DNA from: a virus | Lineage: Duplodnaviria > Heunggongvirae > Uroviricota > Caudoviricetes | DNA length: 18,295 nucleotides | IMG/VR virus record: IMGVR_UViG_2737471838_000005 | Reading direction: 5' to 3' (one strand) | Shown: in pieces, positions 577 to 2,738 of the stretch | Layout: the number at the start of each line of letters is the position of its first letter | How positions within the stretch are numbered: position 1 is the first letter of the stretch | Translations under genes and position numbers: made by a program | The notes under the pieces: generated by a model | Told to the model about the DNA's origin: nothing | Database searches by the model: none | What the model saw: the letters and a program-made list of their open reading frames with translations, nothing else

Positions 577-1502
577 TATGCAAGCCTCACAATATAGTTA
601 AATGCGATGTTTTTGACGGTGTTTTCCGCGTTACCAGCAGCGTTAACGGTGATGGTGTGTCCATGTGAACCAATCGCAACGGAGTGCGTATGAGCACCAA
701 TACCGACAGTATGCGCGTGTGCACCTGCAGATGCTGCTGTGCCGGACAGTGAGTGGCTATGATTACCATCTGTACTGGTATTAGCTAACCACCCCGTAGA
801 CATACCTACTGAGCCTTGTACACCCCAGGTATTTTGACCTGAGCTTGTATAACCATATTGATAAGTATCTTTAAAAACACTGGGGTTAAATCGACGGCCA
901 TCTCTATGGCTGTGATTACCAGCTGCATTCGTGCTGCCACTTAAACTATGGGTATGCGCACCAGTGTTATTCGTGGATTTAGTGCCGTAATCAAACGACG
1001 ATGTGGTTTTCGTCCCCAAATCCGTACTGGATGCGCTGGCGCTGTGGGTATGCGATTTAATGCCGTCCTGTTCCTGAGACAATACGGCCCGACCACTGGC
1101 AGGTTTGCCCTTAATCGTCCAGCCACGCATATCAGGGATCACGCCTGACGGATAAGCCGCTGCAAGTTTCGGGTATGCAGATTTGTCAAAAGCCTGCCCC
1201 TGCATCAGGGCATAACCAGACGGAACGGTATCTGATGGCCACGGGATTGGTGCGCCGACTGGGTAGCTTTCTGGTGGAAGATTTTTCGAGGTATAAACTT
1301 CTGCCCAGTCTTCCTCAAAACCATAGCCATCTCTTGAGGAACGGTAGAACAGACCTCCATTTCTGTAATGTGCCTTCATCTGCAAGGTCCGGCAACTTCC
1401 GACTCCGGTATAGAAGTTAACCAGAATATAGGTGTCGCCAGAGCGGGTGCCCGTTCCATACCGGCATACAGCGCATCGCCGAGCAGAAATCACTGAGAAC
1501 AT
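576..1502 (-). CDS. stfQ: Side tail fibre protein, C-terminal portion (His-rich HxH repeat domain)
   Basis: C-terminal ~260 aa carry repeated HTHS/HSHS/HAHT motifs and the ...[11 protein letters not shown] end typical of lambdoid Stf C-termini. The first ~40 codons of the ORF ([16 protein letters not shown]...) look like out-of-frame read-in, so the true N-terminus is missing or fused. Confidence 0.6.
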
Positions 1503-2316
1503 CCCACGCCTTGCGCTGTGTGGTCAGGTAGGCATTACAGGTGATGCGCGGCTCCGTGCCACCAAAGCCATCCGGCACCGACTGGTCGCAATTCTGGCCG
1601 ATGACATACAGCGCCCATTTGTCCACATCCGCCGCACCGAGACGCTTCCCCATGCCGTAGCGCGGATGGGTCAGCATATCCCACAGACACCAGGCCATGT
1701 TGTTGCTGTATGCTGGCTTAAACGTTCCGTCCCAGATACCGCTGTATTGCCGCGTCTGCGGGTTATAGTTCGACGGCACCTGCAGAATGCGCCCGCGAAG
1801 ATGATAATTACGGCTCACCTGCTGGCTGCCGAACTGTTCCGAGTCCACCTGCACGCCGACCAGTGCCGTGTTCGGGTAGCACTGTTTCACATCGATGATT
1901 TCGGTGTATGACGACCAGAGCGTTTTGTTCTGCAGCTGGTCTGTGGTGCTGTCCGGCGTCATTCTGCGCATCCGGATATTAAACGGGCGCGGCGGCAGGT
2001 TATCCACCACCACCGAGGCCAGATACTGCGAGGTGGTTTTGCCCTTAATGGTGATGTCTTTTTCCGTCACCCAGCCACCATTACGCTGTATCTGAACCAG
2101 CAGGCGAACTTCCGACGGATTCCGGTCCCCCTTTGAGGTGGTTTCCACCAGTGCCTGCACACCGAAGGTAAAGCGCAGTCGGTCGATGTTTGCCGACGTG
2201 ATGGCGCGGGTGATCGGCGTGTCGTATTTCACTTCCGTACCCAACACCGTCTCGGAGCCGGAGGATTCAAATCCCTCCGGCGGAGTCTGCTCCTGCTCAC
2301 CAGCCCGGAACACCAC
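1417..2316 (-). pseudogene. Internal fragment of lambda J-like tail tip / host-specificity protein
   Basis: Translation contains [73 protein letters not shown], which I recognise as the central region of lambda J. It lacks both J termini and overlaps the Nu1 remnant and the stf ORF in other frames. Confidence 0.75.
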
Positions 2317-2738
2317 CGTGACACCGGCGATGTTGGTATTCCCATCCCGTCGAGAATACTGGCAATTTCACCTGCGATCCGCGACAGCACGAAAGTACAG
2401 AATGCGGTTTCCACCACTTCAGCGGAGTCTCTGGCATTTTTCAGCTCCTGTGCGTCGGCCTGCGCACGCGTAAGTCGATGGCGTTCGTACTCAATAGTCC
2501 CTGGCTGGAGATCTGTCTCGCTGGCCTGCCGCAGTTCTTCAACTTCCCGGCGCAGCTTTTCGTTCTCAATTTCAGCATCCCTTTCGGCATACCATCTTAT
2601 AACGGCGGCAGAGTCATAAAGCACCTCATTACCCTTGCCACCGCCTCGCAGAACGGGCATTCCCTGTTCCTGCCAGTTCTGAATGGTACGGATACTCGCA
2701 CCGAAAATGTCAGCCAGCTGCTTTTTGTTGACTTCCAT
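2229..2738 (-). pseudogene. nohQ: Nu1-like terminase small subunit remnant (N-terminal ~130 aa intact, C-terminus replaced by out-of-frame sequence)
   Basis: MEVNKKQLADIFGASIRTIQNWQEQGMPVLRGGGKGNEVLYDSAAVI... matches lambda Nu1 (winged-helix DNA-binding N-terminus). The tail ...MGIPTSPVSRWCSGLVSRSRLRRRDL is unrelated and overlaps the J fragment. No terminase large subunit follows. Confidence 0.8.

Follow-up and report, generated by a model that had tools for sequence, protein, structure and literature searches.

In the Qin cryptic prophage of Escherichia coli ZYB62, the late operon carries a scar that very probably arose through two independent illegitimate deletions, the two ends of one junction lying at what would be preferred points of breakage or arrest. 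The window analyzed here, the whole 18,295-nucleotide stretch of the IMG/VR record IMGVR_UViG_2737471838_000005, was found to be this prophage, with its phage genes on the minus strand. The scar itself is ordinary decay of a known cryptic prophage by illegitimate recombination, with about 21 kb lost, since the joins are out of frame with 2-3 bp of microhomology, neither a recombinase site nor an IS is present, and the remnants are annotated as pseudogenes. Taken alone, it has little weight, being another route by which structural genes were lost from Qin.

The Nu1, J and Stf remnants

Positions 1-4000 of the window match the ZYB62 chromosome, in the interval from ydfJ′ to rspB, with 100% identity. 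When the ZYB62 annotation was compared with K-12, the prophage was found at the Qin site, between the truncated ydfJ and rspB. The Qin genes pinQ, tfaQ, ynfO, ydfO, gnsB, cspI, rzpQ, rrrQ, cspB/F, ydfT, relBE, hokD, flxA, and dicB are all annotated in ZYB62. This Qin differs from that of K-12 in that the dicA-dicF segment is absent, while int, xis, and exo are intact. The cos region (2739-3289, minus strand) lies outside the scar and is intact. It consists of the cosB side (2739-2915), the cosN 12-mer GGGCGGCGACCT (2916-2927), which is the same as lambda cosN, and the homologue of the lambda right end on the cosQ side (2928-3289), which matches lambda 48502-48141. Window positions 2927-2346 match lambda 1-583, comprising cos and Nu1 codons 1-131, with 97.6% DNA identity (E = 0).

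The remnant of Nu1, the terminase small subunit gene, occupies positions 2347-2738 on the minus strand and retains codons 1-131 of 181. Its homology runs from the ATG at 2738 down to 2346/2344, corresponding to lambda 191-583. The ORF then enters the +1 frame of J for 38 codons and stops at 2229, giving 169 amino acids overall, in agreement with the earlier note, which had the homology ending at about 2350 with a switch of frame. The remnant and lambda Nu1 are identical at 132 of 142 residues, and the Pfam Phage_Nu1 profile is covered from position 1 to 134 of 164 (E = 2.6e-82). Matches to PDB 1J9I (residues 1-68) and 6HN7 (residues 1-98) indicate that the N-terminal winged-helix DNA-binding domain, represented by residues 1-68 in 1J9I, is present. 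On the other hand, this is not a full-length gpNu1 of 181 amino acids, as the homology stops at residue 131 and a 38-amino-acid tail follows out of frame. The C-terminal part of gpNu1 binds gpA. A database protein search with the out-of-frame tail peptide returned a single, irrelevant frameshifted J; such a search is uninformative on the junctions because pseudogenes are absent from protein databases.

A fragment of J, the tail tip and host specificity gene, lies at positions 1450-2343 on the minus strand and contains codons 56-354. The DNA homology spans 2346-1448, corresponding to lambda 15670 to about 16568-16574, with 95.8% identity, and the encoded residues match residues 56-357 of PDB 8IYK chain J. 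More than 20 other strains have an intact gpJ gene with 100% identity to this 894-bp fragment. The earlier note rightly recognized a J-like piece here, but it belongs to the N-terminal third of J rather than to the central region, and the limits then given, 1417-2316, are those of a purely mechanical GTG-to-stop ORF. The alternative that this is a complete shorter homologue was checked and not upheld. A complete gpJ has about 1132 amino acids with both termini, whereas only residues 56-354/357 are present here. As the start codon, the first 55 codons, and the last ~778 codons (the receptor-binding end included) are missing, the piece is a fragment.

The side tail fibre remnant, positions 576-1447 on the minus strand, consists of the last 290 codons (843-1132) of a StfR-type gene, in which Pfam recognizes Collar and Phage_fiber domains. 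ORF 576-1502, a mechanical call, begins within DNA derived from J and in a different frame. Downstream lies tfaQ (1-576, minus strand), an intact tail fibre assembly gene of 191 amino acids, whose DNA is 93% identical to lambda 21824-22538. Window positions 1-1449 are 98.3% identical to the stfR/tfa region of strain Z1322HEC0001. PGAP, the NCBI pipeline, already labels the Nu1, J, and Stf remnants as pseudogenes, the last at 576-1265. Chance resemblance to lambda is ruled out by the 95.8-97.6% DNA identity over 583 and 905 bp (E = 0).

Two deletion junctions

Mapping against lambda, K-12 Qin, and intact relatives revealed two internal deletions in an otherwise colinear late region, which bears out the reading of the region as a deletion scar. 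The pairwise alignment proposed in the earlier note gave exact breakpoints, with a microhomology of 3 bp (GAT) at one joint and 2 bp (CA) at the other. At the Nu1|J junction (2344-2346, minus strand), GAT is common to both parents, the Qin-type Nu1 sequence GACGGGAT|CCCC and the J allele AGTGAT|GGGAAT, and the fusion is out of frame. The absence of the genes between Nu1 and J, previously put at roughly 15 kb, corresponds to exactly 15,086 bp (lambda 584-15669). The DNA lost comprises the C-terminus of Nu1, then A, W, B, C, D, E, FI, FII, Z, U, V, G, T, H, M, L, K, and I, and J codons 1-55. The second junction, expected near 1417-1502 between J and a tail-fibre C-terminus, was placed at 1449-1448 (minus strand) by aligning the window with intact J and stf alleles in a three-way comparison. 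CA is common to J codon 355 (CAG) and stf (GTC|ACC), and J codon 355 is joined out of frame to codon 843 of the 1132-codon StfR-type gene. Compared with an intact prophage at the same chromosomal site, about 5.8 kb has been removed, an interval that starts in J at codon 355, includes lom, and ends at stf codon 842.

At both joints, the flanks are colinear with the parents and the overlaps fall within the 0-10 bp taken to indicate a microhomology-level deletion. The two parents explain all of the junction sequence, and no mobile element, target-site duplication, or recombinase site was found at either joint. There is no IS at 1448 or 2345, and the nearest IS3 is found past tfaQ, outside the window, which does not fit an IS-mediated deletion. 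No intact direct parent combining a lambda-type Nu1 with this J allele and this stf allele was found; the parental sequences were therefore pieced together from different relatives. Insertion of a J fragment into a K-12-like Nu1-stf junction was also considered and rejected, as the K-12 Nu1 is longer (to lambda 719) and the stf breakpoint is different.

It is very likely that one deletion took out the equivalent of lambda 584-15669 and the other the ~5.8 kb between J and stf, leaving the order cos, Nu1(1-131), J(56-354), Stf(843-1132), and tfaQ. With these late genes lost or truncated, the prophage is unable to make heads or tails. The ends may have been joined either by template switching at an arrested DNA end or by end joining at a break, with 2-3 terminal paired bases. 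The preferred ends would be the GA dinucleotide in J (lambda 15670-15671) and GA(T) in Nu1 (lambda 583-585), as both recur with other partners.

A recurrent breakpoint in J

Is the Nu1|J junction a single event? It was found in 3 of 5,426 complete E. coli genomes and at two chromosomal loci (Qin and the lambda attachment site, the latter occupied by a remnant), while the J|stf junction was found in ZYB62 only. The exact Nu1|J pattern had no matches in species-representative genomes, IMG/VR, or metagenomes. The first list of hits required both flanks within ~600 bp, and the clustering of breakpoints in it, at lambda 15620/15670/15685 in J and 583/697/699 in Nu1, was discounted. Since this apparent clustering was set aside as ascertainment bias, control scans were run. 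Five control positions in J gave zero junctions in the same scan of the same genome collection. The breakpoint GA at lambda 15670-15671, in codon 56 and directly 5′ of GGGAATACCAAC, is joined to eight upstream partners: Nu1 (lambda 583), E (6494), H at two sites (10687 and 11239), K (14758), a T-like gene, a V-like gene, and a ynaK-like gene. In a set of 119 metagenomic J copies, the sole junction within 600 nt upstream of the anchor falls at the same GA. The Nu1 end at 583-585 is also reused, being joined to A (2034-36) in DLP12 of strain FT130.

What distinguishes the site was then sought in its sequence. The partner sites have no motif in common beyond GA(G/T), and a k-mer comparison of 22 parental breakpoints gave only chance-level sharing; one curiosity in this comparison was CCGACAGG. 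Guidance of partner choice by extended homology was rejected by ranking the GAG/GAT sites in the left arm of lambda (555-560 in all) by their similarity to the J site; in two tests, E 6494 ranked 32nd and 223rd, and H 10687 ranked 156th and 136th. Hairpin-induced arrest was likewise rejected, as the DNA fold of lambda 15620-15720 was not significant (z = -1.7); conservation of a small stem abutting the J site does not extend to the commonest J allele. Inspected by eye only, the site showed no convincing resemblance to CRISPR, Chi, Ter, IHF, or IS-end sequences.

These results raise the possibility, put forward only tentatively, that the GA of J codon 56 is a specific site of breakage or arrest: DNA to its left would disappear, and any GA(G/T) upstream could serve as the new partner of the end. 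On this proposal, there have been at least eight independent uses of the site, in remnants of the Qin, DLP12, Rac, and attB-lambda types, and Nu1 GGGAT|CCCC is a second such point. A nuclease or recombinase with site specificity could be the cause, for example one encoded by a competing phage or an invertase of a prophage, as could a strong replication arrest determined by the sequence. If the J site is specific, morphogenetic genes would be systematically amputated from lambdoid prophages. Models of prophage inactivation usually assume that deletions occur at random and are then sifted by selection. An endpoint fixed to the nucleotide and shared by eight partners suggests that one step of the decay is directed or strongly biased. 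Such a step would affect the comparison of remnants, as identical junctions need not imply common descent.

Three J alleles carry the Nu1|J junction; they are 3.4-4.4% apart, almost all at third codon positions, and differ at distances of 2, 18, and 23 bp from it. A single origin does not comfortably account for this, and nor does simple random recurrence. It is conceivable, though doubtful, that the junction arose once and was spread by homologous recombination, the J island being later overwritten by gene conversion. Its presence at two loci and the 99.8-100% identity of the J islands to intact J alleles elsewhere would fit, as would the known exchange of DNA between lambda and defective prophages, Qin included, through Red-mediated relaxed homologous recombination (PMC3945230). 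On such a route, annealing of a long donor strand would be expected to convert the island up to the borders of heterology. Allele differences so close to the junction do not fit well, however, and the seven other partners of the J site would be left unexplained. Furthermore, the distal J junction of 160-11H1 (lambda 17608|stf′) is common to relatives without the Nu1|J junction, and ZYB62 has 290 stf codons versus ~70 in the 160-11H1 lineage; with far more stf kept, ZYB62 is not derivable from that lineage by deletion alone. An enzyme that cuts at this GA in J codon 56 with a 2-nt stagger, the end then being joined to an available GA end, is an unlikely source; the candidates would be the serine invertase PinQ, encoded nearby, acting on quasi-sites, or a GIY-YIG-like homing endonuclease of a competing phage. 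Enzymes of the serine invertase and GIY-YIG families produce 3′ overhangs of 2 nt, and the quasi-sites on which Cin acts have only the central dinucleotide in common. All eight junction types fit within the dinucleotide GA, pinQ adjoins tfaQ in Qin, GIY-YIG nuclease genes are present in several remnants, and an otherwise intact J copy (L135) has a 1-bp deletion exactly at the J site. However, the identical central dinucleotide is equally predicted by plain microhomology at an arrested 3′ end, the partner sites offer no wider motif, and no GIY-YIG gene is annotated in ZYB62 Qin. Nor was a 26-bp invertase site (two 12-bp inverted half-sites around a 2-bp core) found, and the half-sites at the J site fit the gix/hix consensus poorly. 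With that consensus, the best site in window 1-3300 scored 16/26 and none lay at either junction; a scan of the same positions plus several Qin loci reached 15-17/26, with no convincing pix site in Qin. Crossover sites of the Pin/Gin/Hin invertases were therefore rejected as unsupported.

It is very improbable that the scar is a functional chimera or a selected remnant, for example with Nu1(1-131), in which the regions for DNA binding and self-association are kept, as a cosB decoy against superinfecting lambda-like phages. The native start and residues 1-131 with a solved DNA-binding domain are retained directly downstream of an intact cos, and Nu1-like sequence is kept in more than 4,700 genomes, but both fusions are out of frame, PGAP calls the remnants pseudogenes, and the retained Nu1 ends vary by strain (lambda 261, 583, 697, 699, 703, and 719). 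An assembly artefact of ZYB62, in which repeated prophage genes were mis-joined at the J|stf junction or at both junctions, is scarcely credible. The J|stf junction is known from a single assembly, and most E. coli genomes contain several copies of J and stf. Nevertheless, the Nu1|J junction is present in three independent complete assemblies, the ZYB62 genome has only one J-like place and so no second copy to mis-join, and a repeat-driven mis-join needs long shared sequence, not 2 bp.

Comparison with related prophages

Two illegitimate deletions in ZYB62 can be placed beside the losses in its relatives. Compared with the lambda late operon (cos-Nu1-A...J-lom-stf-tfa), the gene order is alike and the identity is 97.6% for cos/Nu1, 95.8% for J, and 93% for tfa, whereas ~21 kb is gone and the truncated Nu1, J, and stf lie out of frame with one another. 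K-12 Qin (nohA-stfQ-tfaQ) has the same ydfJ′/rspB site and neighbor genes, the lysis genes among them, with 98.6% DNA identity over window 2344-3200; there too, the head and tail genes that would separate Nu1 from stf are gone. In contrast, K-12 keeps Nu1 to lambda 719, joined directly to stf with no J DNA, while ZYB62 keeps Nu1 to lambda 583, a 0.9-kb J island, and another stf breakpoint and allele. Thus, the deletions in the two Qin prophages are independent.

Intact prophages occupy the Qin site in strains B379 and CFSAN061769. Other deletions of the operon were found in the Qin of 17MR471 (lambda 697|15685) and 1332KP (lambda 956|13434) and in DLP12 of P13-6 (lambda 699|15017-15322|15620), while the Qin of 300709 has five junctions. 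Together with the intact prophages, these differing deletions of the same operon in Qin and DLP12 copies form a decay series. Like ZYB62 Qin, the remnants of DLP12 (FT130, P13-6, and BE2-5), of Qin (17MR471, 300709, 1332KP, and 160-11H1), and at the lambda attachment site (MB06233) have lost morphogenetic genes through several internal deletions, with overlaps of 1-8 bp at the junctions; apart from the common J GA (15670-71) and Nu1 (583-585) ends, the breakpoints differ from one remnant to the next. Hot spots of short-homology illegitimate recombination exist for the formation of lambda transducing phages. As with these hot spots and the Cin quasi-sites, the joints described here are recurrent and nucleotide-precise with few shared bases. 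The scar differs from them in having no recombinase site, enhancer, or ~9 bp homology, and in that one fixed end is joined to many partners.

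Two deletion junctions in the Qin prophage of ZYB62

The chromosome of ZYB62, a bovine E. coli isolate, contains window 1-4000 at 100% identity. In the annotated ZYB62 record, this site is the Qin cryptic prophage, flanked by a truncated ydfJ and by rspB. With K-12 Qin as the comparator, pinQ, tfaQ, ynfO, ydfO, gnsB, cspI, rzpQ and rrrQ are present, as are the further usual Qin genes cspB/F, ydfT, relBE, hokD, flxA and dicB. The minus strand of the window carries phage late genes. Three mutually adjacent pseudogenes were annotated by PGAP (NCBI): a 'phage tail protein' (576-1265), a 'host specificity protein J' (1441-2346), and a 'terminase small subunit' (2313-2738). 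Since Qin is already known and the remnants are already PGAP pseudogenes, the scar itself is ordinary.

BLASTN of window 1-3200 against lambda matched window 2927-2346 to lambda 1-583 (97.6%), window 2346-1442 to lambda 15670-16574 (95.8%), and window 1256-978 and 725-11 to stf/tfa. At the protein level, the ORF at 2229-2738 matches Nu1 residues 1-131 and diverges beyond, just as the earlier note had described a Nu1 remnant followed by a frame switch. This ORF covers positions 1-134 of the 164 in the Pfam Phage_Nu1 profile and also the solved N-terminal Nu1 structures. The earlier note had placed a central fragment of J at 1417-2316. It is indeed a J fragment, with an FNIII-A_GpJ domain, but it is not central: since the match spans residues 56-357 of 1132 in lambda J and in the cryo-EM chain 8IYK_J, the piece is the N-terminal third without the first 55 residues. 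The limits 1417-2316 are those of a mechanical GTG-to-stop ORF and differ from the homology limits. Window 1-1449 corresponds, at 98.3% identity, to the 3′ part of an intact gene of the stfR type and its tfa.

The alignment with lambda bore out the proposed deletion scar joining Nu1 to J. At this junction 1, lambda 584-15669 (15,086 bp) is missing, and GAT (window 2346-2344) is an overlap common to both parents. In phage orientation the window reads ...ATTCTCGACGGGAT|GGGAATACCAAC..., intact Qin-type Nu1 (K-12, 17MR471) reads ...GACGGGAT|CCCCCTG..., and the nearest J allele reads ...GGACAGTGAT|GGGAATACC.... Since window 2346 is the end of Nu1 codon 131 and the start of J codon 56, the two genes are joined out of frame, and the Nu1 ORF continues for 38 codons in the J +1 frame. 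A second junction, of J to a tail-fibre C-terminus, had been suspected near 1417-1502; it exists, and its exact place is window 1449-1448, where CA is the overlap. The sequences here are ...GGAACGGGCA|GACGCTG in J, ...ACAATGTCA|CCCGCTCTGG in stf, and ...GGAACGGGCA CCCGCTCTGG in the window, with stf codon 843 joined out of frame to J codon 355. Compared with an intact prophage at the same site (CFSAN061769), about 5.8 kb was lost at junction 2, namely the remainder of J, lom, and the first three quarters of stf. No IS, duplication or extra bases were found at either junction. With its coordinates and its J region corrected, the observation is confirmed, and the reading as a double deletion scar is supported.

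Other copies of this prophage family have been hit in the same operon, by deletions unlike those of ZYB62. In lambda coordinates, K-12 Qin goes from 719 straight to stf, 17MR471 Qin has 697|15685, and 1332KP Qin has 956|13434, while 300709 Qin has 703|2177, 3501|5294, 5626|9780, 10687|15668, and 17608|stf'. The DLP12 prophages of P13-6 and FT130 have 699|15017-15322|15620 and 583|2033-2268|stf, respectively. These joints have overlaps of 1-8 bp, and apparently intact prophages occupy the Qin site in B379 and CFSAN061769. Thus, in the light of this decay series, the supported deletion scar is an ordinary case of prophage decay in a known element.

A recurrent breakpoint in J

Junction 1 is rare. 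Counted as single-piece matches, it occurs in three of 5,426 complete genomes (ZYB62, 160-11H1, and MB06233), and no exact match was found in species-representative genomes, IMG/VR or metagenomes. ZYB62 is the sole carrier of junction 2 among the 5,426 genomes.

In independent remnants, eight partners (Nu1, E, two sites in H, K, T-like, V-like, and ynaK-like) are joined to the GA in codon 56 of J (lambda 15670-15671). The Nu1 joint (window 2344-2346) shares GAT. The H joint at lambda 10687 in 300709 shares CTGAG; 300709 and 160-11H1 have the same J allele, distal joint and J fragment start, and differ in the upstream partner. The capsid gene E (lambda 6494) is the partner in a metagenomic copy, in IMG/VR, and in a complete E. 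coli genome. Two further partners, each seen both in IMG/VR and in a complete E. coli genome, are a T-like gene of tail assembly and a V-like tube gene. K (lambda 14758) is the partner in USMARC-49610 and H (lambda 11239) in BE2-5; by match annotation only, Z142-6 and PE15 are apparently of these same respective types. The ynaK-like ParB-domain gene, which adjoins trkG, is the partner in a Rac-type remnant of TUM10008. Besides window 2344-2346, the GA endpoint is seen in loci L005, L006 (MB06233), L013, L117, L136, L137, L138, L157, L158, and L159 (TUM10008). The bases shared are GA, GAG, GAT or CTGAG, and the crossover is placeable within GA in all eight types. Since five fusions keep the reading frame and three do not, frame is not the selected feature. 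In TUM10008 (L159 3250-7269), the ynaK-like gene is fused in frame to J codon 57, and annotation pipelines accepted the chimeric ORF as an intact 1339-aa 'phage attachment tail tip protein J'.

When metagenomes were scanned for the J sequence immediately to the right of the joint, 120 copies came up, 119 with the native upstream sequence and one joined to E. Among 119 metagenomic copies compared across the 600 nt preceding the anchor, the sole true joint lies at the hot spot. The IMG/VR scan, limited to copies with a non-J base 6 nt upstream of the anchor, gave three joints (E 6494, T-like, and V-like), all at the hot-spot position. At five other conserved positions in J, a scan of the same design in the same collection detected allelic variants but no joints; assuming an even spread over six windows, the chance of three out of three joints in the pre-chosen one is about 0.005. 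The K 14758, H 11239, and ynaK-like types surfaced in complete-genome searches for the E, T-like, and V-like joints. An apparent clustering in the first match list was dismissed as ascertainment bias, since that search demanded both flanks close together.

The Nu1 end is also reused. In FT130 DLP12 (19990-20010 of its locus, L011), Nu1 ends at GGGAT as in junction 1 and is joined to A at lambda 2034-2036; by their genome matches only, KFu019 and EC50 apparently have the same type. Both ends of junction 1, the J end above all, are recurrent, nucleotide-precise breakpoints. The Nu1 breakpoint GGGAT|CCCC (window 2344-2348) lies inside a palindrome, GGGATCCC, which includes GATC.

Origin of the shared joint and of the hot spot

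Did the Nu1|J joint of the three carriers arise once? The J islands of ZYB62, 160-11H1, and MB06233 differ pairwise by 3.4-4.4%, with nearly all differences in third codon positions, and therefore diverged as working genes; the nearest differences lie 2, 18, and 23 bp from junction 1. Intact J genes of other strains match each island at 99.8-100% identity. MB06233 has the joint outside Qin, in a remnant that occupies the lambda attachment site (bio/ybhC); this implies that either the joint recurred or prophages at separate places in the chromosome exchanged DNA. This remnant (L006, bioA-ybhB / ybhC) is heavily decayed, with Qin-like ynfO/ydfO beside the ZYB62-type joint. The distal J joint lambda 17608|stf' is common to 160-11H1, 300709, and 1332KP, the latter two without the Nu1|J joint. 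Since ZYB62 keeps more of stf, it cannot descend from the 160-11H1 lineage by deletion alone. Two readings are left. The joint may have arisen more than once, or it may have been transferred, with recombination from intact phages replacing the islands right up to their borders; recombinational exchange of this type with phages is documented for Qin (PMC3945230).

At the hot spot, the right-hand end is fixed and the left-hand partners vary, with 2-5 terminal bases shared and GA always included. This pattern is as expected of a fixed DNA end, which might be an arrested nascent strand switching template or, alternatively, a site-specific break with a 2-nt stagger. The partner sites have no unusual similarity to the J site, the breakpoints share no motif beyond GA(G/T), no invertase-like site was found, and local hairpins at the J site are not significant. 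In an IMG/VR contig (L135, ~9756-9762), an otherwise intact J lacks 1 bp at precisely the hot-spot codon (GTGA-GGGAAT vs GTGAKGGGAAT), possibly a sequencing error or a repair scar; this would fit a fragile site but is no proof of one. The 8-mer CCGACAGG has three copies in the 27.5 kb of lambda examined, at 589 (complementary strand), 10688, and 48490, corresponding to window ~2333-2340 and 2932-2939. The first lies 3 nt from the Nu1 583-585 breakpoint, the second directly abuts that at H 10687, and the third is 5 nt to the left of the cosN nick. This placement was noticed post hoc and may be due to chance.

Other features of ZYB62 Qin

The cos region is intact (window 2739-3289; cosN 2916-2927), with a 95-98% match to lambda across the 12-nt cohesive-end sequence GGGCGGCGACCT and its two flanks. 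A packaging site is kept beside the DNA-binding Nu1 remnant in a prophage without structural genes. Unlike K-12 Qin, ZYB62 Qin lacks ydfW, ydfX, dicC, dicA, ydfA-C, and dicF between flxA and dicB. This interval (window ~13100-13720; 28107-28715 of the ZYB62 locus L001) is reduced from about 2.3 kb to a 610-bp gap with one small pseudogene. It looks like another deletion scar, with the DicA repressor lost and dicB kept. Genes retained in ZYB62 Qin are dicB, ydfD, xis, an intact integrase gene, and an exonuclease gene of 2.5 kb. Between pinQ and tfaQ, just outside the window on its left side, ZYB62 carries an IS3 (L001 13716-14878). K-12 has none there; 160-11H1 has an IS3 between pinQ and a tfa remnant, at another position and in the opposite orientation.
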